DNA of 64,000 bases from Eledone cirrhosa (taxonomy: Eukaryota), in NCBI GenBank assembly GCA_964016885.1, contig OZ024757.1:17670001-17734000 (forward strand), read 5' to 3'. Below, in pieces: positions 3,326-60,549 of this stretch. The notes below the pieces were generated by a model. That model searched no databases, was not told the origin of the DNA, and saw only the letters and a list, made by a program, of their open reading frames with translations. The position numbers and the translations under genes are program-made. Every line of letters starts with the position of its first letter. Within the stretch, counting starts at the first letter, position 1.

Positions 3326-4858
3326 AGGCCCCGCTTGCGAAACCCACCGCCTTAGCAACTTCATTGATACCCTTCTCAAGCCTTTTCTCTAACACATCAA
3401 AAGCTATATAAGGGACGACCTAGATATGCTCAATCACCTCCCTAATATGCCCCTTTCTGAACAAACCCTACTAGTGACGTTCGATGTAGTCAACCTATAC
3501 TCCAATATGCCCCACAACCTAGGAATAGAAGCGATCCAATTCTGGCTGGATAATTACCACAATGAACTCCCACAACGCATCAAAAAGGAATTCGTGATAG
3601 AGGGACTCAAATTTATCTTGGAGAACAATTACTTCGTTTTCAATAACAAACCCTACAGGCAGAAATCTGGGACCTCTATGGGAACGAAAACATGCCAACC
3701 TAGTCATGGGATACCTGGAAATCACCCTCTACACTAAAGTACTAAACAAATTTGGAAACACTCTCCACTTACACATAGAAAGGAACTGGAAGCGATATCT
3801 AGATGACTGCTTCATCCTTTGGCACGAAAACATCGAGAAACTTAAAGAATTTCACACCCTTATAAATGGGCTCAACACGAATATTAACTTCACGATGGAA
3901 TACAGCCATCAACAACTCCCCTTCCTCGACATCCTCATTAAGATTCATAACAAAAAAAATAGAAACAGACATATACTACAAGCCCACAGACTCCAAGCAA
4001 TATCTTCCTTTCAACTCTTGCCACCCTAGACACGTTAAAATTAATATTCCCTACAACTTAGCCAAGAGAATCTGTACTATAGTCTCCAATAAAAACACCT
4101 GTTACTTACGGCTACAAGAACTAAAGGACACACTCATAGGCAGGGACTACCCTGCATCACTAATTGACAATGGAATCCAACGTGCCCTAAAACTCAGTAC
4201 CCAGGACCTTAGACACCCTAAAGTAAATCAACCGAAACTAAAAGCTCTTCCATACATCTCCACACACAACCCCCTCAACAATGAGGCCTTTGACACCATC
4301 CTCCAGAACATCCCTGTGTTAAAAAAGGACCATAGAATGAACCAAATCCTACGAACACACGATATCATAAAGAGCAAAAGACAATCTAAGTCAATGAAAA
4401 TCATCCTAACACATGCCAAAGTACTGCCAACCACAACAACGAAACCCACAGTAAAAAAATGCGATAGACCCAACTGTGGCATATGCATCAACCTAATAGA
4501 GGGTTCGGAATTCTATTTCAAAGAAGGACAACGTTTTATAGTAAAACACAATTTCACATGCGCATCAGAAAATCTAATATATGTATTAACTTGCTCAGGT
4601 TGTCGAAAACAATACATAGGCCAGACCAAAAACAGCCTCCGCCAACGCATGACTGTCCATAGATCCCAAATTAAAATACGGGAATACAGGAAAATAACAC
4701 TGAGTGAACACATTGATACCTGTGCCGCCCAAAATCATCCCAACTTCAGAATCTTTCCCCTCTACAAATTTAAAGATAATACCACCCACACCCAGCGCAT
4801 CAGCAAGGAATCTCACTTTATTAACAAATACGGACCCCGTCTAAACACTTCTCCCTAA
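3300..4858 (+). mobile_element. 5'-truncated Penelope-like retroelement (RT + Cys linker + GIY-YIG endonuclease), frameshifted; Neptune-like
   Basis: LRPIIAGPACETHRLSNFID, TFDVVNLYSN, QKSGTSMGT, RYLDD, LPFLD, YYKPTD..YLPFNSCHP, CDRPNCGIC and NLIYVLTCSGCRKQYIGQT across three overlapping ORFs. A long AC-rich 3' region runs to ~6010. Confidence 0.95.
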
Positions 4859-6014
4859 GACGAACCCACAACATACACACGTCAACATACATACCTACAT
4901 CAGCATACATCCTACATACATCTCTATCCACATATAAACACAATGAGATACGTAAACACACATGTTCTATGGTGCAACACAAATATACACAAATTTGCAT
5001 ACCTTTTGATGTCTATAGATATAAATGTGCCGACACACACACATACATATACGCACACATGCATTGCACACTGATGGGCACATACATATTTGTACACAAG
5101 TATTCCAATACGGCAAGGCCTAATGGATTCCCCTTGCAGTACGTACAATCTGGACACTCACACACACCTTGGTCTTATACCAATACTATATATCATTTCA
5201 CACCTTTTATTATTAAGGTTTTTGATGTTCTATTGAGAGAATCGTTTTTACTGAAAATATCGAATAATGTACACCATTTTTACCAGTATCACAAAAATAC
5301 TGGTCCACCCACACACACATATATACACACACACATACACACACTTCTCCGTATAAGACAAGAGCTGAAAAATATCTTTTAACATGTTAAAATATCACCA
5401 CACACGTACAGACACATTCCTACTGACCGATCCCTCTACCACGAATTACTCTGCTACACACACACACACACACACACTTGTCTTAATAGGCATTTGAACT
5501 GTCAGCAGGCTGCGGTTCGCACACACATCCCTGCTGACCATTATCACAACAACGAACCTCTTTACTACTACTACTACTACTACACACACACACACATATT
5601 TGTCTTGAAAGACTTATTTTTCAGTGGCTTCTCAATCAGCCGAGACAAACCTACATTTGGCGCAAAATCAATTTTTAACATTCACATGACCTCTACCGAC
5701 CAATCAAAATTGTTTTGACCACAAGAATTTTTACATACATCTGGAGCCGCTTTTTTTTTACATAAAACAGGTAGAATTTCCAAAACTAATCAGATTAGAG
5801 CAAACATCACGGGCGCACTATCTCAAAATTATATTTGAAAAGCATTAGAAATGAGCAACGGGTAAAACTTAAAACCTAAACTGAATACTAACCAATACAA
5901 TTACTAATTTTTACTTATTCCCAATTAAACTATTTTTCACTGGGAACAATTTGTGAGCATTTTCTTTTCCTTTTGCCAATATATCATAACTCGTGTGTTA
6001 CACCTCTATTCTTT

Positions 6015-6017
<3 letters not shown>

Positions 6018-6051
<34 letters not shown>

Positions 6052-6052
6052 G

Positions 6053-6121
<69 letters not shown>

Positions 6122-6122
6122 G

Positions 6123-6153
<31 letters not shown>

Positions 6154-6176
6154 ATATATATATATACATGTATATG

Positions 6177-6245
<69 letters not shown>

Positions 6246-6262
6246 GTATATATATATATATG
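6018..6262. repeat. (TA)n microsatellite
   Basis: Direct reading. Confidence 0.98.
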
Positions 6263-6264
6263 TC

Positions 6265-6850
6265 TCATGGTCGGGTCGTTGGCGACTAAACTGGCAACCC
6301 CACCAAGGTTTCTTGGTGAGGAGGGTGACTTTGGACATCCTGCAGGACTAAAAACAAAACCTGTCAAAGGGCAAAGGAGCTCTTAAGAGTCAATGGCCAT
6401 CCAAAATCACCGGGAGAGATGACCCCTTTAGCCTTAGTCAAGGCAGAATTCTAGGAGAAGGAAAACTCTGATATAACACCTGCAACCCTGATGGTATCCA
6501 ATGATGTTGACTTGTTCTTCTTTTTGGTAAATAGCATCTTGGTTAAGAGAGTGGGACTGGCTTTGTGCAGTGCCTTTGCTCACTATAAAAGCTTCACGGC
6601 ACAGGCATTGCTTTATATCTGGAGATCTCTCTGCACTTGTCCTCACATGGGCCCAGCACTATGTGTCAATAATTGTCCTACCATGGGCCTAGCACTATGT
6701 GTCAATGATTGTCACAGGTGTAGTGTTTGTACCAGAGGTTTCAAGTCGCTGGCTGGACTAAAAAGTCACACTCGTTCAGCGCTTCGGTAGGGGTTATCCT
6801 ACATGGATGTAAAGTAGTGGCCGTACTCGAAAACGAGTTGGCAGCCACCA
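6265..6850 (+). mobile_element. Non-autonomous RTE-related repeat; related pieces at ~37036-37310 (-), ~42430-42590 (+), ~43130-43412 (+)
   Basis: Shared blocks GGCGACTAAAC.GGCAACCCCACCAA, GAGAGTGGGA.TGGCT and tail GGCC.TACTCGA.AACGAG. Remnant CSVC...LAGLKSH resembles an RTE C-terminus. Confidence 0.65.
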
Positions 6851-6914: not shown

Positions 6915-10280
<3,366 letters not shown>

Positions 10281-11354: not shown

Positions 11355-11420
11355 TATTTTGTCTGAGGAAGGCATAGCATATTGTTAATATGATATCCCT
11401 GAAATATATATAATGAAATA
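11355..11420 (+). ncRNA. Type I hammerhead ribozyme motif (family A)
   Basis: TATTTTGT CTGAGGA [AGGCATAGCATATT GTT AATATGATATCCCT] GAAA TATATA TA^ ATGAAATA; stems I and II pair, with G-U pairs and two mismatches. Confidence 0.8.
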
Positions 11421-14031: not shown

Positions 14032-14630
14032 CACCTGTAGCATGACATGTTGACAGCAACAGCTATAGGTGCGTGTCATTATCAAATATATGGAGAGATA
14101 TTAAGTTTCTAAGAGGTCTTGATGAAGCTGTCCTGAAGAACGTTGTCATGGCAACCGGCTGCTACATCAGCAGCAGTGAGCACCTGGGGATAGTTTACAT
14201 TCAAGGTTCTTCTTAGGCGAGAGATTCCACCGTGTAAATCAATCAATGCATACACACACACACACCCTCACACACAGGCACACACACACACACACACACA
14301 CAGGCACAGAGGCACACACACACACACACAGGCACACACACTCACACACACAGGCCACACACACTCACTCACACACAGGCACACACACAGACAGACAGAC
14401 ACACACATATATATATATGTGTATACCCTTCATTAGGAATGTATACCCCCCGCCAGTCTGTATATATATATGTGTGTATGTATATATATATATATATGCA
14501 GAAGTTATATTTAATTTGTTGGGATTCCAACAAACTTAAAAGTTTATAACTGATATAAAGCACTCAACAATTTACTGGAGTAAATATTCAATATATTAAT
14601 AAATGGAAACTATATTTATAAAACCATAAT

Positions 14631-14694
14631 TATTTTATTATATATATTTCAAGGGCAACAAGGCAGTCTTGGTGCGCTTTCATCAGATAAAATA
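14631..14694 (-). ncRNA. Type I hammerhead ribozyme motif (family A), left arm of a fold-back at ~14640-14830
   Basis: Reverse strand: TATTTTAT CTGATGA [AAGCGCACCAAG ACTGC CTTGTTGCCCTT] GAAA TATATA TA^ ATAAAATA, with a perfect 8-bp stem I. The mirror + strand copy (core 14787-14793) has lost its cleavage site by deletion. Confidence 0.85.
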
Positions 14695-15403
14695 CAAAAT
14701 TTGTTTTATAAATATTGACATAACTGTGGAAAACAACCTTGACGGTTATGTCAATATTTATAAAACAAATTTTTTTTGTATTTTATCTGATGAAAGCGCA
14801 CCAAGACTGCCTTGGATGCCCTTGAAATATAGTTTCCATTTATTAATATATTGTATATATATGTGTGTGTATATATATATATGTGTATGTATACATATAT
14901 ATATATAGAGAGAGAGATATATATATATATACGTATGCATACTTACATTTATGTATCAGCTGTGTTAGGGCGCGAAATAAAATTTAATCTTATTTTTAAT
15001 ATTCAGCAAGGCCAGCCGTAACTCGCCCGGTATGCAAATGAGGCTACTCAGCCGATGTGTACTTAAGAAAATACTATATATTTTCAACCATTCAACACGT
15101 TGGCAGTGGTATACAGTCCTGATCAAGAGTAATGACCCAGAAACAAGTTGATTGTTCCTCAAAGCCAGTGCTGAACAAACGGATGACAAATTGTCGTCGG
15201 CACGGCACAGCTTTAATCAGGGCGTTTGTTTACAAATGAATTGAAAGTTATTATTAATGTTAGATATAACCCATGCGTAAATATGTATATGTATACACAC
15301 ACACACATATACATGTGTGTGTGGGTACGTATGCATACTTACATATATATATATATATGTGTGTGTACGTATGCATACTTACATATATATATATCTATAT
15401 ATA

Positions 15404-31788: not shown

Positions 31789-32920
31789 CATCATCATCAT
31801 CATTTTACGTCCACTTTTTCCCTGCTTGCAAGGGTGGGACGGGAAGTGATTCTGGCTAGATTTCTACAGCTGGATGCCCTTCCTAACACCAACCTCATTT
31901 ACAGTGAGTGCTGGGTGCTTTTTTCCCGTGGCGCCTCCACTTTACAGTGGAATGATAGGGACCCCAGTCCTTATCATCTCATTTCTACAGCTGAGTAAAC
32001 TGGAGCAATGTGAAATAAAGTGTCTTGCTCAAGGAAACAACACATCACCCGGTCTGAGAATTGAACTCACAACCTTTCGATTGCAAGGCCAATGCTCTAA
32101 CCACTAAGCCATGTGCCTCTTATATATATCCAGCTATCTATCTATCTATCTATAGATATATCTGTCTATCTATCTATCAAGTGTGGTAACTGGTTTCATT
32201 ACAAATGATAGAGGAATAAAACACTAGCTTCTAGAACACACACACACACATTGATTTGTACCTATCTACTCTTTTTGTCTCTATGTCTTCCTATCTATCT
32301 ATCGCCAACTACAGAAAGCATTCTCCAAAGGAGATGAACAGGATTTGTCTCATATATATAAAGAGGATTAACATGGCTTAGGGATTTGTCACTTATCCGT
32401 GTTAATCCTCCTTTTAACTGTTATTGCTAAATCACGGAATTTTCAGGAATCTACCCTCCGAAAAACCTAAGTAAACATCTTGTTGAGTCAACTACTACAT
32501 TACGCTGAAATACTCCTTGGTACAGATTACTCGTAACCTGAGCTTAGGTAACCTTAAATGATATCTCGTTCACTTTGATATATATATATATATATATCCC
32601 CGTCCCACCACCACCCCGTTCTATGTAAAGTTATGTTGGTGCCACACCATCCAGGCCGAAACAAATGAGATCGTGTAGGTGTCACGACAAAAAAACACAC
32701 AGTCCACGCTGTAATGTGGCCGTGTAGGCAACACGGTAAAAACCTCCCAGACCCACACTGTAAATGTGGTTGGTGTTAGGAAGGGCATCCAACTGTAGAA
32801 AACCTGCCAGACAGTTCTATGCGAGCAAGACAATCACTCTTGCCTCAAGTGGGACTACCCCCGTCCAAACCCATGCAAGCGTGGAACACGGACGTTAAAC
32901 GTTGATGATGATGATGATGA

Positions 32921-32962
<42 letters not shown>

Positions 32963-33040
32963 ATACGTTGGGAGGGTCATGTTGCTAATAAAAACACACG
33001 CACCTGTTGGTTTTCATTTCAATTTATTATAAATTTACGG

Positions 33041-33098
<58 letters not shown>

Positions 33099-33497
33099 GT
33101 ATATATAAATATATATATATCATCATCATCATCATCAATGTATATATATATATATATATATATATCATCATCATCATCATCGTTTAACGTCCATCTTCCA
33201 CACTTGCATGGGTTTGGACGGGAATTTTCCCACCTGAGGCAAGATTGGTTGTCTTGCTCGTATAGGACTGACTGGCGGGTTTTCTACGACTGGATGCCCT
33301 TCCTAATACCAACCACATTTACAGTGTGGACTGGGAGGTTTTTACCGTGTTACCTACACGGCCACATTACAGCGTGGACTGTGTGTTTTTTTGTCGTGAC
33401 ACCTACACAGCCTCATTTGTTTCGGACTGGATGTTGTGGTACCAACATAACTTTACAGTGAAAGGGGTGGTGTGGATGGGGTGGGGGTAGTGGGAAT

Positions 33498-33571
<74 letters not shown>

Positions 33572-39414: not shown

Positions 39415-39991
39415 ATAGAAGCTTTCGCTGTAATTTGGACTGAATTTAGCCTGATAGTGGGGTTTAGTACCTCTAAGAAATGGAAAAAAGATGAGAATTG
39501 ACGTACATGGGAATTGAACTCACATCTTTGGTTATCCAGACCACTGTGCTACCATTTCACCAGTAATCAGGAATGAAGAATTAGAGAAACAAGGACTCAG
39601 GAAACATTATTTAGTTGAATGAAGTCATGTGTGTACAAGATTGATCGATCGAGGAAAGGTATCAATAGGAAGGAAATATTGAATATTTTCAAATCCCGCC
39701 GAGGTTAACTTGGCCTTTCATCCTTACAGGGGGTCGATAAAATAAAGTACCAGTGATGCACTGGGACAATTGCTGGCCTTGTGCTAAAAGTAGAAACAAT
39801 TATATATTTATCTATTTCTTATTGTTTTGCCCAAAGATAGAGGATGGTTGCCTCCGCCAGGGTTTATTATAGTCTTATTGTTCTCTCTCTGTCTCTCTCT
39901 CTCTCTCACTCCCCCATCTTTCTCTCACTCTCTCTCACTTTCACCCCCTCTCTATCTCTTTCATTCTCACCTCTCTCTCTCCATTGTCCAG

Positions 39992-45035: not shown

Positions 45036-45485
45036 AGGCAGAGAACTTAAATGAATATATATATATATATATATATATGTAGATAAATCTACCAAAAGTT
45101 TACGGTAGTGTCCAATCCGTATGAAGAACTCAATGTAATCCGGATATCATGAAAAGAGATTGGTCAATTCAAAACCTGTTCCCAAACAGACCTATTGTAT
45201 TGAATCTTTGTTCTTATCAATAAACAAGTATCATTATTTCTGAAGACAGCATATATATGTGAAGGTATGTATATTCCCTCTGATAGTTTGTATAAATATT
45301 GTACATAGATCTATAGAATATGCATACCAATTCTAACACATATATATCCTAGAAACGATCGTAAAATAATGAATTTTTTTTGTTTAATATAAGGAACTGT
45401 TTCTTTGTTTATTCATTATTTTTTAAATAATTTATATATATATATATATAATATAAGATCAAAAGATGGTTAAAGGAGTTCTATG

Positions 45486-45556
45486 TATTTTATTATGCGC
45501 ATTTCAAAAACAAACATCATCATGCAATAATATTTGTGTTTTCATCAGATAAAACA
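45486..45556 (-). ncRNA. Type I hammerhead ribozyme motif, left arm of fold-back 45448-45728
   Basis: Exact reverse complement of the 45620-45690 motif. Confidence 0.85.
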
Positions 45557-45619
45557 GGAGAACATGATATGAAGGCTAAAAAACACTTGTGGATAGTGCA
45601 GTTTTAAATCAACATATCC

Positions 45620-45690
45620 TGTTTTATCTGATGAAAACACAAATATTATTGCATGATGATGTTTGTTTTTGAAATGCGCATAATAAAATA
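45620..45690 (+). ncRNA. Type I hammerhead ribozyme motif, sense to KCNQ1, in intron 3
   Basis: TGTTTTAT CTGATGA [AAACACAAATATTAT TGCATG ATGATGTTTGTTTTT] GAAA TGCGCA TA^ ATAAAATA; palindromic stem III TGCGCA. Confidence 0.87.
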
Positions 45691-45811
45691 CATGGAACTC
45701 CTTTAACCATCTTTTGATCTTATATTATGTATACTCCAGTCCTACAAACTGTAGAGTGCTTCTTATCCGATATCTGCATTGCTTTATTGTACTACAATAA
45801 AACTCACCTCC

Positions 45812-45869
<58 letters not shown>

Positions 45870-46669: not shown

Positions 46670-47330
46670 TCTGATGCGAAAAGTATTTATAGGGTAATTG
46701 GGACGCAGACAATTCAAGTAAAGGAACCTCCTTCAATTCATGAAATTGAAGAATTCTGGAAAAAAGTATGGAATACAGAAAAATCCTATAATGCAATGCA
46801 GAATGGGTTAAGAACTTTGAAGAAACATACAATAATTTAGAAAGACAAACTTGGCAAGACATAACTATGGAAGAACTGGAGTTGGCACTAAAGAAAGCAA
46901 ACATATTGAAATCCCTTGGCATTGATAAAGTGCCAAACCTCTGGTTATCTTCTTTAAATGTTACCCGTGATATGTTGGTTATAACGAACCTATGCACAAC
47001 CCTGAAATAACTCTTGATTGGTTTGCACAAGGTATGATATATCTCTTGTCAAAGTCGACAGAAACTAATATTCAAAAACATTATCGCCCTATCACTTGCC
47101 TTCCCACATCATACAAGATTCTCACATCAATCTTGACTGAGACAACCTAACCTACAAATTTATGGATGAAAATCATCTATTCCCTATTGAACAGAAAGGG
47201 TGACGCCGTGGGTCTTACGGGTGGAAACCCCCCCATGATTCTGGAAAACTCATAAAAAGTATAGAAATCTGTGAGAACTGTTTGGATTGACTATAAGAAA
47301 GAACTTGACAGTGTTCGCCACTAATATATC
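46670..47330 (+). mobile_element. Degenerate R4/Dong-like LINE RT fragment
   Basis: IEEFWKKVW, KSLGIDKVPNLW, YRPITCLPTSYKILTSIL, FPIEQKG*RRGSYG, WIDYKKELDSV. Confidence 0.85.
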
Positions 47331-49410
47331 AAGAAAGAACTTGACAGTGTTCCCCACTAATATATCAAGAAAGAACTTGACAGTGTTCCCCACTAATATA
47401 TCAAGAAAGAACTTGACAGTGTTCGCCACTAATATATCAAGAAAGAACTTGACAGTGTTCCCCACTAATATATCAAGAAAGAACTTGACAGTGTTCGCCA
47501 CTAATATATCAAGAAAGAACTTGACAGTGTTCCCCACTAATATATCAAGAAAGAACTTGACAGTGTTCGCCACTAATATATCAAGAAAGAACTTGACAGT
47601 GTTCGCCACTAATATATCAAGAAAGAACTTGACAGTGTTCCCCACTAATATATCAAGAAAGAACTTGACAGTGTTCGCCACTAATATATCAAGAAAGAAC
47701 TTGACAGTGTTCCCCACTAATATATCAAGAAAGAACTTGACAGTGTTCGCCACTAATATATCAAGAAAGAACTTGACAGTGTTCCCCACTAATATATCAA
47801 GAAAGAACTTGACAGTGTTCCCCACTAATATATCAAGAAAGAACTTGACAGTGTTCCCCACTAATATATCAAGAAAGAACTTGACAGTGTTCGCCACTAA
47901 TATATCAAGAAAGAACTTGACAGTGTTCCCCACTAATATATCAAGAAAGAACTTGACAGTGTTCCCCACTAATATATCAAGAAAGAACTTGACAGTGTTC
48001 CCCACTAATATATCAAGAAAGAACTTGACAGTGTTCCCCACTAATATATCAAGAAAGAACTTGACAGTGTTCCCCACTAATATATCAAGAAAGAACTTGA
48101 CAGTGTTCCCCACTAATATATCAAGAAAGAACTTGACAGTGTTCGCCACTAATATATCAAGAAAGAACTTGACAGTGTTCGCCACTAATATATCAAGAAA
48201 GAACTTGACAGTGTTCCCCACTAATATATCAAGAAAGAACTTGACAGTGTTCCCCACTAATATATCAAGAAAGAACTTGACAGTGTTCCCCACTAATATA
48301 TCAAGAAAGAACTTGACAGTGTTCGCCACTAATATATCAAGAAAGAACTTGACAGTGTTCGCCACTAATATATCAAGAAAGAACTTGACAGTGTTCCCCA
48401 CTAATATATCAAGAAAGAACTTGACAGTGTTCCCCACTAATATATCAAGAAAGAACTTGACAGTGTTCGCCACTAATATATCAAGAAAGAACTTGACAGT
48501 GTTCGCCACTAATATATCAAGAAAGAACTTGACAGTGTTCGCCACTAATATATCAAGAAAGAACTTGACAGTGTTCCCCACTAATATATCAAGAAAGAAC
48601 TTGACAGTGTTCCCCACTAATATATCAAGAAAGAACTTGACAGTGTTCCCCACTAATATATCAAGAAAGAACTTGACAGTGTTCGCCACTAATATATCAA
48701 GAAAGAACTTGACAGTGTTCCCCACTAATATATCAAGAAAGAACTTGACAGTGTTCCCCACTAATATATCAAGAAAGAACTTGACAGTGTTCGCCACTAA
48801 TATATCAAGAAAGAACTTGACAGTGTTCCCCACTAATATATCAAGAAAGAACTTGACAGTGTTCCCCACTAATATATCAAGAAAGAACTTGACAGTGTTC
48901 GCCACTAATATATCAAGAAAGAACTTGACAGTGTTCCCCACTAATATATCAAGAAAGAACTTGACAGTGTTCGCCACTAATATATCAAGAAAGAACTTGA
49001 CAGTGTTCCCCACTAATATATCAAGAAAGAACTTGACAGTGTTCCCCACTAATATATCAAGAAAGAACTTGACAGTGTTCGCCACTAATATATCAAGAAA
49101 GAACTTGACAGTGTTCCCCACTAATATATCAAGAAAGAACTTGACAGTGTTCCCCACTAATATATCAAGAAAGAACTTGACAGTATTCCCCACTAATATA
49201 TCAAGAAAGAACTTGACAGTGTTCGCCACTAATATATCAAGAAAGAACTTGACAGTGTTCCCCACTAATATATCAAGAAAGAACTTGACAGTGTTCCCCA
49301 CTAATATATCAAGAAAGAACTTGACAGTGTTCCCCACTAATATATCAAGAAAGAACTTGACAGTGTTCGCCACTAATATATCAAGAAAGAACTTGACAGT
49401 GTTCCCCACA
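47295..49410. repeat. 36-bp tandem repeat, about 59 near-identical units (AAGAAAGAACTTGACAGTGTTC[G/C]CCACTAATATATC)
   Basis: Direct reading; essentially one biallelic position. Confidence 0.98.
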
Positions 49411-52325
49411 CATGGATTCTGAAAACTTTGGAATGTTCTGAATATTTCCCCAGTAATATCACACTTTCTGAAATACAACAAGTATGTATGGGTTTGAAAT
49501 AAGAAGGCAACAAGTCGGAATTAATTGAGGGAGGTGAGGTAGAAGGCAAATATTGGAAGAAGGTGGAAAATAAAAAGACATGAATGACTGATTGCTATTT
49601 TTAAAAAAACAACGACGACCTCAAAAGTCAATCCCCGATTTTTCCGAGATTTTCCCTTAGTGACCCCCCCCCCCCCGCCCCATTTGACAATGGATGGGTA
49701 ATCTGAAATATTGGGACTAATATATCAAGAAAGAACTTGACAGTGTTCGCCACTAATATATCAAGAAAGAACTTGACAGTGTTCCCCACACATGGATTCT
49801 GAAAACTTTGGATGTTCTGAATATTTCCCCAGTAATATCACACTTTCTGAAATACAACAAGTATGTATGGGTTTGAAATAAGAAGGCAACAAGTCGGAAT
49901 TAATTGAGGGAGGTGAGGTAGAAGGCAAATATTGGAAGAAGGTGGAAAATAAAAAGACATGAATGACTGATTGCTATTTTTAAAAAAACAACGACGACCT
50001 CAAAAGTCAATCCCCGATTTTTCCGAGATTTTCCCTTAGTGACCCCCCCCCCCCCCCCGCCCCATTTGACAATGGATGGGTAATCTGAAATATTGGGACT
50101 AATATATCAAGAAAGAACTTGACAGTGTTCGCCACTAATATATCAAGAAAGAACTTGACAGTGTTCCCCACACATGGATTCTGAAAACTTTGGATGTTCT
50201 GAATATTTCCCCAGTAATATCACACTTTCTGAAATACAACAAGTATGTATGGGTTTGAAATAAGAAGGCAACAAGTCGGAATTAATTGAGGGAGGTGAGG
50301 TAGAAGGCAAATATTGGAAGAAGGTGGAAAATAAAAAGACATGAATGACTGATTGCTATTTTTAAAAAAACAACGACGACCTCAAAAGTCAATCCCCGAT
50401 TTTTCCGAGATTTTCCCTTACTGACCCCCCCCCCCCCGCCCCATTTGACAATGGATGGGTAATCTGAAATATTGGGACTAATATATCAAGAAAGAACTTG
50501 ACAGTGTTCGCCACTAATATATCAAGAAAGAACTTGACAGTGTTCCCCACACATGGATTCTGAAAACTTTGGATGTTCTGAATATTTCCCCAGTAATATC
50601 ACACTTTCTGAAATACAACAAGTATGTATGGGTTTGAAATAAGAAGGCAACAAGTCGGAATTAATTGAGGGAGGTGAGGTAGAAGGCAAATATTGGAAGA
50701 AGGTGGAAAATAAAGAGACATGAATGACTGATTGCTATTTTTAAAAAAACAACGACGACCTCAAAAGTCAATCCCCGATTTTTCCGAGATTTTCCCTTAC
50801 TGACGCCCCCGCCCCCATTTGACAATGGATGGGTAATCTGAAATATTGGGACTAATATATCAAGAAAGAACTTGACAGTGTTCGCCACTAATATATCAAG
50901 AAAGAACTTGACAGTGTTCCCCACACATGGATTCTGAAAACTTTGGATGTTCTGAATATTTCCCCAGTAATATCAAACTTTCTGAAATATAACAAGTATG
51001 TATGGGTTTGAAATAAGAAGGCAACAAGTCGGAATTAATTGAGGGAGGTGAGGTAGAAGGCAAATATTGGAAGAAGGTGGAAAATAAAAAGACATGAATG
51101 ACTGATTGCTATTTTTAAAAAAAACAACGACGACCTCAAAAGTCAATCCCCGATTTTTCCGAGATTTTCCCTTACTGACCCCCCGCCCCATTTGACAATG
51201 GATGGGTAATCTGAAATATTGGGACTAATATATCAAGAAAGAACTTGACAGTGTTCGCCACTAATATATCAAGAAAGAACTTGACAGTGTTCCCCACACA
51301 TGGATTCTGAAAACTTTGGATGTTCTGAATATTTCCCCAGTAATATCAAACTTTCTGAAATATAACAAGTATGTATGGGTTTGAAATAAGAAGGCAACAA
51401 GTCGGAATTAATTGAGGGAGGTGAGGTAGAAGGCAAATATTGGAAGAAGGTGGAAAATAAAAAGACATGAATGACTGATTGCTATTTTTAAAAAAAACAA
51501 CGACGACCTCAAAAGTCAATCCCCGATTTTTCCGAGATTTTCCCTTACTGACCCCCCGCCCCATTTGACAATGGATGGGTAATCTGAAATATTGGGACTA
51601 ATATATCAAGAAAGAACTTGACAGTGTTCCCCACTAATATATCAAGAAAGAACTTGACAGTGTTCCCCACACATGGATTCTGAAAACTTTGGATGTTCTG
51701 AATATTTCCCCAGTAATATCACACTTTCTGAAATATAACAAGTATGTATGGGTTTGAAATAAGAAGGCAACAAGTCGGAATTAATTGAGGGAGGTGAGGT
51801 AGAAGGCAAATATTGGAAGAAGGTGGAAAATAAAAAGACATGAATGACTGATTGCTATTTTTAAAAAAACAACGACGACCTCAAAAGTCAATCCCCGATT
51901 TTTCCGAGATTTTCCTTTACTGACCCCCCCCGCCCCCATTTGACAATGGATGGGTAATCTGAAATATTGGGACTAATATATCAAGAAAGAACTTGACAGT
52001 GTTCCCCACACATGGATTCTGAAAACTTTGGATGTTCTGAATATTTCCCCAGTAATATCACACTTTCTGAAATATAACAAGTATGTATGGGTTTGAAATA
52101 AGAAGGCAACAAGTCGGAATTAATTGAGGGAGGTGAGGTAGAAGGCAAATATTGGAAGAAGGTGGAAAATAAAAAGACATGAATGACTGATTGCTATTTT
52201 TAAAAAAACAACGACGACCTCAAAAGTCAATCCCCGATTTTTCCGAGATTTTCCCTTACTGACCCCCCCCCCCCGCCCCCATTTGACAATGGATGGGTAA
52301 TCTGAAATATTGGGACTAATATATC
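49380..52325. repeat. Tandem array of eight ~340-380-bp units, each including 1-2 of the 36-mers
   Basis: AAGTATGTATGGGTTTG recurs at ~49480, 49859, 50241, 50620, 50994, 51367, 51740 and 52079; units differ mainly in poly-C length. Confidence 0.96.
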
Positions 52326-52719
52326 ACTAAGGTAACAATCAGTCATTCTTGTTCCTTTAATTTCCTCTTTCTTCCACTCTTTGCCTTCTACCCCACCCCT
52401 CTTAATTCCCTTCCGATTTTGTTACCTTGGTATTTCAAACCCATCTAGTTAGAGTGTTGTGCTTGGAATAATAAGGGCGTAGGTTGATTCCTGATGTGAG
52501 AGGGTAGATGGGATTTTCATGATATGACTGGAGCCTCTCTGATTAAGATTTATCTAATTGTGAAAGTGCGTGGCCTGGTGGTTACGGTGTTGTGCTTGCG
52601 ATAATAAGGGCATAGGTCTATTCCTGGAGTGGGTGGTGAGTTGTGATGTTCCTGATAGGACTGGGGACTGGGGCGCCTATGATTAAGATTATCTAATCTT
52701 TATTTTATTATATTTGTAG

Positions 52720-55363: not shown

Positions 55364-55474
55364 ATAACTGTGATGACCATCGGATATGGTGATAAGGTGC
55401 CGCAGACGTGGCTTGGAAAATTAGTAGCGTCCTGCTTTGCTGTGTTTGCAATCTCATTCTTTGCTTTACCCGCA
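55364..55474 (+). CDS. KCNQ1: KCNQ1 exon 7 (selectivity filter, S6), 111 nt; later exons lie beyond the window
   Basis: TTCAG| [37 protein letters not shown] |GTAAGT. Confidence 0.97.
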
Positions 55475-56199
55475 GTAAGTTTCTTCTTCTTCTTCTTCTT
55501 CTTCTTCTTCTTCTTCTTCTCTCTCTCTTTATATACACATATATGTATACAAGTGAAAGAAGATATATACATATATATGTGTATATATATATATACACAT
55601 ATATATATATATATATTTCTTGTTCATCCATTTCGCATTTTATATACCACACGCAATACTTCAAGAAAGCTACAGCTTCCTCATATATTCCCCTCCCCTT
55701 GGTTACTGCTACATACATATACGACTGCCTCTTGTTACCCCCTCTCTATCGGTATGTTTTCTTTTTCTTCTCTTTATTTTCTTTCTCTTCGCTATCATCT
55801 CTGTTTTATCTTTTCCTTCCTTAATAACTTCCTGAAGTTATTAACGTGCTGTGGATAGATGTATTGTCTTTAATGCATCGAAACATCTGAGATCCGCAGC
55901 AGACAACTGAAGAGGGGATTTGTCTTATGTTTGTGTTTCCTTTACATTTCTAAACACACTACTCTACACACACACACACACACATCATTGTGTATATGTG
56001 TGTGTACATAAATCTATAGATACCTGTGTGTCTGCACGCATACATACACACACCCATATATATATATGTAGAAGTTCTATTTAAATTGTTGGGATACAAC
56101 AAGCAAATACTTTTATAACTGATATAAAGCACTCAACAAATTATTGGAGTAAAAATACGATATATTAACAAATGGAAACTATATTTATAAAACCATATT

Positions 56200-56264
56200 T
56201 ATTTCATTATACATATTTCAAGGACACCAAGTTAAATTATGGTGTGCTTTCATCAGATAAAATA
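56200..56264 (-). ncRNA. Type I hammerhead ribozyme motif (family A), left arm of fold-back 56159-56507
   Basis: Reverse strand: TATTTTAT CTGATGA [AAGCACACCA...TGGTGTCCTT] GAAA TATGTA TA^ ATGAAATA. Confidence 0.83.
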
Positions 56265-56401
56265 TACTATAGATCAGTTTTATAAATAAATATTGACATA
56301 CCCTTAAAGAATGCGACCATTTCTATCCGGGAGCTTCCAACAGATATGGTCGCTTTCTTTATGGGTATGTCAATATTTATTTATAAAACTGATCTATATT
56401 A

Positions 56402-56466
56402 TATTTTATCTGATGAAAGTACACCATAATTTAACTTGGTGTCCTTGAAATATGTATAATGAAATA
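56402..56466 (+). ncRNA. Type I hammerhead ribozyme motif (family A), sense to KCNQ1, in intron 7
   Basis: TATTTTAT CTGATGA [AAGTACACCA TAATTTAACT TGGTGTCCTT] GAAA TATGTA TA^ ATGAAATA. Confidence 0.83.
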
Positions 56467-56504
56467 AATATGGTTTTATAAATATAGTTTCCATTTGTTA
56501 ATAT

Positions 56505-56559
<55 letters not shown>

Positions 56560-57126: not shown

Positions 57127-57329
57127 GACAGATATGTATTTAAGAGTAGCATTGTTGTATGAGTAGTTTCAAGAATGAGGTTCACAAGTGGTCAATATTA
57201 ATATCTAGTCCAACCTTACAATGGTGGTGGTGAAAGATTTCTTCTAGTGCTGCATGATCATTTCACTCACACACACATATATAGGTGTGTGTGCGTGTGT
57301 GTGTGTGTATGTATATATATATATATAGA

Positions 57330-59180
57330 AATGTGTCCGGGATGATGCCGGTGTACTTAGTGTCACAAATGATCAGAAAAAGGAGGCCTGGAAATGTCAA
57401 GTGTGTTTATGAGAGACTGATGAATGTGGAGAACGAATGGGAGGGAGAGAAATTACCCTTGGTAGATCCGACAGAGGGACCAGCTATTGAGATTGACGAA
57501 TATAGGGTCCAAGAGGCGATTAGGGAAATGAAAAATGGTAAGGCTGCCAGACCATCGGGAATAGTTGCTGAGATGCTGACGGCATCAGGGGACGTAGGCA
57601 CTAAACTGGTTGCACACATCATCAATCAGGCTATATATGGTGGTGTCATACCCAAAGACTGGTGCAGCAGTATTCTCATAAATTGCTACAAGGGTAAAGG
57701 GGATGCTTTGGAGAGGAGCAATTATAGGAGTATAAAACTGATAGATCAGGTTATGAAAGTGGCAGAAAGGATTTTAGCACAGCTAATTAGAGAAAGGGTC
57801 AAACTAGATGAGATGCAGTTTGGTTTTGTGCTTGGGAAGAGTACAACAGTTGCCCTCTTCTTGGTGAGACAATTGCAAGAGAGGTTCTTAGAGAAGAATA
57901 AGCCACTATACTTAGCCTTTGTTGACCTAGAGAAGGCCTTTGATAGGGTACCCCGATCTGTCATCTGGTGGTCCCTAAGGAAGCTAGGTGTTGAGGAATG
58001 GCTTGTGAGGACAGTGCAAACTTTGTACAGAGGTACTCTCAGTAAAGTCAGGGTAGGAATGGAGTTTAGTGAGGAATTCCAGATACAAGTAGGAGTACAT
58101 CAGGATTTGGTCCTCAGCCCGCTCTTGTTCATTATAGTCCTCCAAGCCATAACAGAGGAGTTTAAGACTGGCTGTCCATGGGAACTTCTCTATGCTGACG
58201 ATCTGGTTTGTATAGCAGAATCAGTAGAGGAGCTAGAGAATAAATTCTGGCTATGGAAACAAGAGGACTGAGAGTGAACATAGCTAAGACAAAAGTATTG
58301 ACAAGTAGAAGAGAGGACAATACTCCGATTCCATCAGGGAAATGGCCATGTTCGATATGTAGGAAAAGAACTGGCATAAATTCCATAAAATGTACGCAAT
58401 GCAGATCTTGGGTACACAAGAGATGTAGTGGGATAGCAGGCAAACTAACAAGTAGGAAAAACTACGTATGCAGTAGATGTACAGGGAAATTAGACAGTGG
58501 AAGTCGCATTGATAGACACATTTTTCAAATGCAGGAGGACGCTATAGAAGTGGTGGATAGCTTCCGGTACCTAGGAGATCAGATTAGCATGGGAGGAGGG
58601 TGTTCCGAGGCCATAGTATCTAGAATAAGGACGGGTTGGAAGAAGTTTAGGGAGCTGCTTCCTCTGTTGACAAAGAAGGGTTTCTCCCTGCGTACGAAAG
58701 GCCGGTTGTATGATGCCTGTGTGAGGAGCGCGATGCTGCATGGTAGTGAGACATGGGCAGCAACTGCAGAGGATATGCGACGGCTGGAGAGAAATGAGGC
58801 AAGCATGCTCCGTTGGATGTGCAGTGTAAATGTGCGTGAACGACCCAGCATAAATGTGTTGAGAGAGAAACTGTGTCTGAGAGGGATAGAATGTAATGTA
58901 CGGGAGAGGAGACTGAGGTGGTATGGACATGTGATGCGCATGGAGGATGACCGATGGGTGAAGAAGTGCCAGGAAATGCCAGTTGAAGGAAGACGTGGTA
59001 GAGGTAGACCACGAAAAACATGGGCGGAGGTGGTGAGAACAGACCTCAGATCATTGAAGCTCACGGTGGAGATGACGAAGGACTGTGACGAGTGGAGAGA
59101 TGCTGTGCTGAATAAGACCCGTCCCACCCTTGCAAGCAGGGAAAAGCGGACGTAAAATGATGATGATGATGATGATGATG
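57330..59180 (+). mobile_element. 5'-truncated RTE-clade LINE (RT with Cys-rich PHD-like insert), one frameshift near 58260, (TGA)n tail
   Basis: NYRSIKL, QFGF, FVDLEKAFDRVPR, LLYADD, CSIC...[26 protein letters not shown]; ends GGACGTAAAA(TGA)n. Confidence 0.96.
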
Positions 59181-59626
59181 ATATATATATACATATGTAT
59201 ATATATATATATACATATGTATATATATATATATTTATATACATACACACACACATATATATGTATATATATATGTGTGTATATATATATATATACATAT
59301 ACATATCATCATTTCATCATTTCATTTTACGTCCGCTTTTCCCTGCTTGCAAGGGTGGGACGGGAATTGATTCTGGCTTGATTTCTACAGCTAGATGCCC
59401 TTCCTAACACCAACCTCATTTACAGTGAGTGCTGGGTGCTTTTTTGACGTGGCACCTACACGTCCACTTTGCAGTGGAATGCATCTCATTTCTACAGAGT
59501 AAACTGGAGCAATGTGGAATAAAGTGTCTTGCTCAAGGAAACAACACACCACCCGGTCTGAGAATTGAACTCACAACCTTTCAATTGTAAGGCCAATGCT
59601 CTAACCACTAAGCCATGTGCCTCCAC

Positions 59627-59681
<55 letters not shown>

Positions 59682-59685
59682 TATG

Positions 59686-59719
<34 letters not shown>

Positions 59720-60167
59720 TATGTATATATATATATACATATGTATATATGTATATATATATGTATACATATATATATACATATATATACACATACATAC
59801 ATACATACATACATATATACACACACACACATATATATATATGGAGGCACATGGCTTAGTGGTTAGAGCTTGCAATCGAAAGGTTGTGAGTTCAATTCTC
59901 AGACCGGGTGATGTGCTGTTTCCTTGAGCAAGACACTTTATTTCACATTGCTCCAGTTTACTCAGCTGTAGAAATGAGATGATAGGGACTGGGGTCCCTA
60001 TCATTCCACTGCAAAGTGGTCGTGGAGGTGCCACAGCAAAAAAGCACCCAGCACTCACTGTAAATGAGGTTGGTGTTAGGAAGGGCATCCAGCTGTAGAA
60101 TTCAAGCCAGAATCAGTTCCCGTCCCACCCTTGCAAGCAGGGAAAAAGCGGACGTAAAATGAAATGA

Positions 60168-60212
<45 letters not shown>

Positions 60213-60398: not shown

Positions 60399-60479
60399 AT
60401 AGGAACGAGTAAGACCCCGACGGCTGAGCTCAAGCCGTTTCGAAACGGCTTGAGCTCAGCCGTCGGGGTCTTACTCGTT

Positions 60480-60484
<5 letters not shown>
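60399..60484. repeat. Perfect 86-bp palindrome centred on TTTCGAAA
   Basis: ATAGGAACGAGTAAGACCCCGACGGCTGAGCTCAAGCCGTTTC|GAAACGGCTTGAGCTCAGCCGTCGGGGTCTTACTCGTTCCTAT. Confidence 0.96.
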
Positions 60485-60516
<32 letters not shown>

Positions 60517-60549
60517 GTGTGTTGTAAGTAACTGAGAATACGTGTGTAT

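Follow-up and report, generated by a model that had tools for sequence, protein, structure and literature searches.

The hairpin and its host intron

The window, a stretch of 64,000 nucleotides from the Eledone cirrhosa assembly (contig OZ024757.1, positions 17,670,001 to 17,734,000), carries on its + strand a KCNQ-type channel gene, with coding exons near 38.3-38.7k, 40.0k, 43.9k, 45.9k, 52.7k and 53.8k followed by a seventh at 55364-55474. The following coding exon begins at 64071, just outside the window, and further ones reach at least 81.5k in extended coordinates. Pfam yielded Ion_trans_2 alone for this gene, which is putatively KCNQ1 by its motifs. Seven coding exons lie upstream of the hairpin described here, so its placement in intron 7 by an earlier note on this DNA holds by coding-exon count. 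The features of the insertion and its surroundings are, in order of position:

55364-55474, + strand: seventh coding exon of the KCNQ-type channel, with the pore helix, the GYGD filter and the start of S6 (PF07885, E 9.8e-10)
56050-56067, no strand: left target, a (CA)n/(TA)n microsatellite entered by the tailed long 3' end (from sequence)
56068-56158, - strand: pLTR tail of ~90 nt, on the left arm only (from family copies; L065 4160-4250)
56159-56324, - strand: left arm, pLTR core, 5'-truncated at arm position 1 (from the inverted repeat and family comparison)
56200-56264, - strand: type I minimal hammerhead in antisense to KCNQ, with cleavage predicted after 56208
56323-56341, + strand: junction and loop, a 2-nt CT overlap of the arms followed by 17 nt that are the 5' end of the short right arm
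56342-56507, + strand: right arm, pLTR core to the short 3' end of the family (from family comparison)
56402-56466, + strand: type I minimal hammerhead in sense to KCNQ, with cleavage predicted after 56458
56508-56556, no strand: right target, a (TA)n run (from sequence)

The inverted arms, 56159-56324 and 56342-56507, are 166 nt each, differ by 5 mismatches and enclose a 17-nt loop (56325-56341). The predicted fold has an energy of -247 kcal/mol (z -38.7), and none of 100 shuffled sequences was as stable. Both arms contain every defining part of the minimal type I hammerhead, namely stems I and II, a self-complementary stem III and the CUGANGA, GAAA and UH motifs. In each case stem I measures 8 bp and stem II 30 nt, the core reads CUGAUGA and GAAA, the loop of stem III is self-complementary, and the cut site is UA. 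In the sense copy, stem I is formed by 56402-09 and 56459-66, with CUGAUGA at 56410-16, stem II at 56417-46 and GAAA at 56447-50. This design resembles the minimal hammerheads described for Penelope-like elements (PLEs) of metazoans; those hammerheads are likewise of type I with a long stem II, a stem III of 1-2 bp and a self-complementary loop (PMC4209133). Rfam at its gathering score matches no hammerhead at the hairpin; the motif scan employed here gave 0 matches in a reversed-sequence control of 1.59 Mb. The + arm also holds a 55-nt intron look-alike (GTATGT ... CTGAT ... AG, 56365-56419), whose removal would cost the hammerhead half of its core.

Repeat, fold and motif analyses thus bear out the earlier description of a hairpin with complete hammerheads at 56200-56264 (-) and 56402-56466 (+). 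The extent given with it, 56159-56507, is accurate for the inverted arms and too short for the insertion, which really starts at ~56068, where the left arm's ~90-nt tail begins. Because the left arm carries on into this tail, which in full-length copies leads towards the start of the ORF, the long and the short 3' end of the element form the two outer boundaries, and both run into (TA)n. Aligned to the family reference, the locus (L001) comprises an arm A at 1-253 and an arm B at -18 to 160 with a gap of -2, and the short right arm starts 1 nt from the preferred 5' stop of the family. TA repeats lie on both sides of the insertion, and a target-site duplication is not discernible. Among fetched copies, 90 of 98 family 3' ends enter TA-like DNA.

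From the first coding exon to 81.6 kb in extended coordinates, intact hammerheads occur only in two fold-backs, this hairpin and one at 45450-45815; the sense hammerheads within the KCNQ coding span are therefore all masked, as had been claimed, and the KCNQ body has no lone intact copy in either orientation. The two fold-backs do come from different families, the first having the stem III loop TGCGCA. It likewise pairs a short with a tailed arm, in a short-left, tailed-right layout, and stops ~100 bp upstream of the acceptor of exon 4 (45916). Upstream of the first coding exon, at 14582-14830, is a third fold-back, which belongs to a related subfamily and has stem III and the cut site deleted from its + arm. 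Lone hammerheads in the window are found at 11363(+), 12600(+), 20419(-), 33678(+) and 37489(-).

Several other repeats were recorded in and around the gene. A LINE ORF of RTE-like type, spread over two frames (57285-59155), sense to KCNQ and in the same intron as the hairpin, served as a control query. Two imperfect palindromes of ~940 bp, made of another repeat, lie at 59270-60210 and 32578-33511. An Rfam match to plastid psbJ-2 (60405-60531) was rejected as spurious, there being a tight hairpin at ~60405-60480. Intron 4 contains tandem arrays of ~72 bp and ~380 bp (47295-52326), and intron 1 a weak tRNA-like match (33.6 bits, 39499-39568, - strand), possibly a tRNA-derived SINE.

A recurrent Hydra-like Penelope end

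The repeat that forms the arms is abundant. A search with the arm scored 40 of 590 candidates, all of them matches of 95-100%, and the genome has 3,370 exact copies of a 35-mer that includes the stem II loop TAATTTAACT (control 0). Reads and contigs (seven runs and a further run of the same sample) show a pile-up from sister copies, with no read or contig spanning the locus, and the pLTR family is also present in sequencing runs labelled as other organisms. These numbers bear on the stem II loop and the stem III TATGTA, which the earlier note had taken as variants private to the locus and as evidence that its arms were copied from each other. TATGTA occurs in 132 of 148 fetched arms, a set partly chosen on the family motif, and no rare variant is common to both arms of the hairpin. 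The two arms diverge by 3.0%, and among 101 comparable arms 54 are nearer to the left arm than its own partner is and 11 are nearer to the right arm, the very pattern that the note had named as speaking against its reading. The supposedly private variants are thus subfamily-wide.

The repeat represents the non-coding end, or pLTR, of a Penelope-type retroelement that its motifs mark as Hydra-like. At one locus (L065) a pLTR and tail (3993-4252) precede a broken ORF (~4295-6481); a long 3' region then leads to another pLTR (8132-8296), giving a unit of ~4.1 kb from pLTR to pLTR. A search with the ORF of a second locus (L063) gave 96 scored matches at 88-100% identity, and the pLTR accompanies 9 of the 10 best ORF loci fetched. 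By motif (YRDD, YVG), the ORF encodes RT plus GIY-YIG; Pfam returned 0 matches for four pieces of the family ORF. DKT replaces DKG in the ORF of a third locus (L280) and is also read in L065 DNA. A CxCx5C linker is present in 6 of the 7 listed ORFs of at least 400 aa, the seventh ending ahead of it, and near the EN end CxxC and CxH are found and CCHH is absent, as judged by eye. The Hydra clade of C-terminal EN+ PLEs is characterized by DKT, CxCx5C, CxxC and CxH without CCHH, by RWK, a hammerhead and (TA)n insertion, and by a generally small size of <3 kb (Craig et al. 2021, PMC8557442). The family shares all of these except the last K of the N-terminal RWK, with RIRWH in L280 and RFRWL in L065, and the size, since the L065 unit of ~4.1 kb departs from the tendency. 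The label is kept at Hydra-like because of RWH/RWL, the 4.1-kb unit, the lack of a Pfam match and a placement by motif only. A Penelope-like ORF of another clade, broken and with a GIY-YIG domain (PF01541, E 1.5e-6), lies at 3393-4858 of the window, and at a further family locus (L049, 433-2603) two fold-backs surround an ORF fragment as a nested palindrome with identical arm differences in both.

The head-to-head layout is likewise common. An exact pattern of two 16-mers at a gap of 60-230 finds at least 804 head-to-head loci in the genome, against 11 tail-to-tail pairs for the same type of pattern at a gap of 60-400; both figures are lower bounds for one subfamily, and the KCNQ locus itself misses the pattern by one base. 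Among the first 100 listed matches of the 35-mer, 32 make up 16 close opposite-strand pairs by hand count. The earlier proposal of a recurrent architecture is strongly supported by these counts. The KCNQ hairpin is one of hundreds of dead retroelement ends, and its layout is already in print: inverted, 5'-truncated pLTRs with a one-sided tail have been described for Penelope-like elements (PMC8557442; PMC3846280). With the complex EN+ PLE insertions of those reports it shares head-to-head pLTRs, a tail at a single end, (TA)n and the pLTR hammerhead; it differs in lacking any ORF, in a tail of ~90 nt instead of 30-40 nt and in having no discernible target-site duplication. A similar twin layout is seen in the opposite-strand minimal hammerheads of Schistosoma, 100-700 bp apart (Cervera and de la Pena 2014, PMC4209133); the accessible text of that article notes such pairs and is silent on masking and on strand bias in introns.

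Non-LTR retrozymes (bioRxiv 10.64898/2026.07.22.740005) offer another comparison, being PLE-derived, carrying a type I hammerhead and reportedly under-represented in introns. They are arranged in tandem, head to tail, and can form an active dimer, whereas the KCNQ copies are an inverted pair; the KCNQ element was accordingly rejected as a member of that class. A compact hammerhead with the stem III loop CTAG and a retrozyme-like appearance was seen three times in a myosin gene (L137 ~5073-6010, G000:C11); the copies are identical, one pair standing in tandem at a distance of 467 nt and the third being inverted.

Formation of the inverted pair

Fifty fold-back pairs were recovered from fetched loci; the arms overlap by at least 80 nt in 43, and 40 combine one tailed with one short arm. 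Arm divergence is 1.7% within loci and 3.5% between them (38 loci, one pair each; Wilcoxon p 7e-11), and at subfamily-diagnostic columns the arms agree in 119 of 130 comparisons, with 73.8 expected. Many pairs had been picked by patterns that require identity in both arms, so similar arms are favoured in this sample; four of the five diagnostic columns lie outside those patterns. The likeness within loci and the agreement at diagnostic columns show that the arms normally come from one source, the KCNQ locus having since drifted to 3.0%. The earlier idea of a common source for the arms therefore survives for the family as a whole, although neither the evidence offered for it nor the KCNQ locus itself bears it out.

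The end points of the arms point to how such pairs are made. With a longer reference and 53 pairs, a few of them from the same loci, the arm that extends further 5' ends at -19/-18 in 22 pairs and further upstream in 4, a sharp stop which suggests that the 5' end of the RNA lies there. In 41 long/short pairs, more 5' sequence is present in the short arm in 27, in the long arm in 12 and in neither in 2. Copying back along the long arm cannot yield a short arm with additional 5' sequence. At the KCNQ locus, the loop belongs to the short arm, the tail belongs to the long arm and the two overlap by CT, so neither arm is a copy-back of the other. In vitro, the PLE protein of an anole cleaves and extends both of the strands, has two internal start sites at the limits of the tail and works on uncut RNA (PMC11167929). 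The long-plus-short rule and the 5' stop agree with those start sites and speak against simple self-priming. Judged from the end points, a two-primer model, in which opposite strands of the target each prime reverse transcription at one of two fixed internal sites, fits best, and the asymmetry of the tail together with the sharp 5' stop probably reflects these two starts.

Under this scheme, an RNA would begin close to the A in ACTATCC, which lies 20 nt upstream of arm position 1. One cDNA would start from the tail end and the other from the short end, on opposite strands, both passing through an uncut hammerhead, and their 3' ends would then be joined via an overlap of 0-4 nt or a short filler (CT at the KCNQ locus). 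Some copies seem to have their 5' end at the cut site (positions 115 and 118); these ends were set aside as a likely artefact of a 3-nt deletion in the reference, and among six core-failing copies of families A and B in gene bodies none clearly starts at the cut site.

Self-priming, in which one strand of the same element snaps back at the near-palindrome of the pLTR 5' end and copies itself, has been proposed on an antisense template for rotifer Penelopes (PMC3846280). Junctions do cluster around this near-palindrome, GGAGCTTCC, with symmetric joins there at two loci (L071 and L077), a common source for the arms would be expected from such copying, and the 12 of 41 pairs in which the long arm reaches further 5', which count against the two-primer scheme, are compatible with self-priming too. 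Second-arm junctions are spread, however, from -18 to +209, and neither arm contains the other, at the KCNQ locus as in 27 of 41 pairs, leaving this route improbable for the hairpin. Far less probable still is that the fold-back is a mobile unit of the MITE kind, or that it is retained as a regulatory element of KCNQ or as an editing substrate. In favour of this, one other locus (L003) is joined through an identical CT and carries at position 21 the arm-specific base of the KCNQ hairpin, and long duplexes are ADAR substrates. Junctions and arm lengths vary, however, among loci, the arms have drifted by 3.0% as other copies do, and neither A>G (9 of 82) nor T>C (11 of 82) is in excess among arm differences, a count made in DNA and silent on RNA editing. 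A MITE or fold-back DNA transposon was rejected on the variable junctions and on outer ends that are two different retroelement 3' ends. The L003 copy (G000:C2 ~201491300) has flanks that differ from those of the KCNQ locus and may represent a recurrent junction or rare copying of a fold-back as a unit.

The favoured reading, to which we assign a probability of roughly 0.8, sees in the hairpin a dead insertion without an ORF, in which two Hydra-like Penelope pLTRs stand head to head in (TA)n. It was likely produced by reverse transcription that both cut strands primed, at two internal sites, and its hammerheads are predicted to be silenced by the 166-bp duplex.

Predicted masking and strand bias of intronic hammerheads

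In a fold with 600 nt of context, the hammerhead core is paired with p>=0.999, and the probability of stem I pairing falls to ~1e-56 on the + strand and ~1e-54 on the - strand. The sense hammerhead is thus predicted by the model to be fully paired to the left arm and silenced in the pre-mRNA. Whichever strand is transcribed, the antisense arm is made first, so a sense hammerhead would be trapped as it emerges. Masking of this kind is a by-product of the mode of insertion and not an adaptation. It likely explains the persistence of fold-backs in introns in which lone sense copies are scarce.

The earlier note had also suggested purifying selection against unmasked intronic ribozymes, arguing from the two fold-backs in KCNQ. 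That argument has no force by itself, because every fold-back holds a sense copy and the KCNQ body is without a lone copy either way. A wider count was made in gene bodies in which the strand is known from exon matches (myosin head, dynein heavy chain N2 and C domains), amounting to 26 segments plus the KCNQ body, or 1,593,317 bp. Over 1.35 Mb, a first pass that used a masking window of 450 nt counted 3 lone copies in sense and 9 in antisense (p=0.15). The counting rule was fixed ahead of scanning the last 200 kb, and in these unseen data lone intact hammerheads number 1 sense and 7 antisense (p=0.07); applied to the old data, the same rule gives 4:8, and for all data together 5:15 (p=0.041), with 0 in the reversed control. 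Restricted to motif matches in repeat families, the lone copies stand at 3:14 (p 0.013) and the masked ones at 17 sense and 17 antisense (17 pairs). One of the three lone sense matches was rejected as a chance match in an unrelated repeat, leaving a curated ratio of 2:14 (p 0.004), or 2:11 (p 0.022) when three copies with <2 kb of visible upstream DNA are also dropped. These ratios are to be read with the small n, a curation partly post hoc, the pooling of several hammerhead families, expression that is assumed, and one gene that supplies 5 of the 14 curated antisense copies.

Controls from the same DNA are balanced between sense and antisense. LINE fragments are distributed 65:61 and fragments of the family ORF 4:6, and hand counts give 16:14 for an unrelated non-hammerhead repeat and 6:4 for copies of the hammerhead families with a broken motif, Fisher comparisons with these two sets giving p 0.010 and 0.026. 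An automatic "dead" class (21:18) was dropped as such: a single chance motif match had brought in an unrelated repeat, which makes up 29 of the 39 rows. The part of the selection idea that stands is its direction, with 2-5 sense against 14-15 antisense copies and unbiased controls; in a small sample, and with cleavage itself predicted, the strand counts are suggestive of selection against unmasked sense copies. The strand bias of lone intact hammerheads is the new element of the present analysis. No published report of such a bias in introns was found in the literature covered, a body that includes few subscription papers; the retrozyme preprint (bioRxiv 10.64898/2026.07.22.740005) reports fewer intron copies, and the words "orientation" and "antisense" are absent from its accessible text.

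Tentatively, and at somewhat below even odds, the bias may mean that lone minimal Penelope hammerheads cut host pre-mRNA in vivo often enough for sense copies to be purged from introns, head-to-head insertion switching the ribozyme off and fold-backs being the surviving sense form in genes. That orientation is under no selection, the 2:14 or 5:15 reflecting chance and clustering and the masking having no consequence for fitness, is on the unlikely side. The numbers are small, significance is not reached in the first pass or in the sole unseen set, part of the curation came after the fact, and published single minimal hammerheads did not cleave in vitro (PMC4209133). Old and new data nevertheless share a direction, the controls are flat, and individual genes lean antisense in 8 cases and sense in 1 (hand count; sign test p ~0.04). 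A scarcity of sense copies that is real and due to another RNA signal of the pLTR, also hidden in the hairpin, is judged unlikely as well. AATAAA directly follows the cut site in the family of the KCNQ hairpin and in family B, and a donor-like GTATGT stands at arm position 24. Against such a signal, copies with a broken motif are 6:4, with AATAAA kept in 2 of the 6 sense copies, and pLTRs spliced at the GTATGT donor number 0 genome-wide. Nor is a promoter effect at the level of DNA likely, since a fold-back has one in either direction and fold-backs are nevertheless common in gene bodies.

The KCNQ locus itself is ordinary: its recurrence was rightly recognized, the evidence given for copying between its arms was wrong, and the idea of selection has gained modest independent support. 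The family as a whole bears on two questions, whether hammerheads cut in vivo and how the inverted ends of Penelope elements originate. Hammerhead cleavage is dispensable for PLE insertion in vitro, where uncut RNA is used (PMC11167929). A bias against lone intact copies in introns, from which masked and broken ones are exempt, would be population-genetic evidence for cutting in vivo, and the thousands of hammerhead-bearing pLTR copies in this genome make the idea testable genome-wide. If it is true, the strand bias of introns would be a genome-scale read-out of the in vivo activity of Penelope hammerheads.
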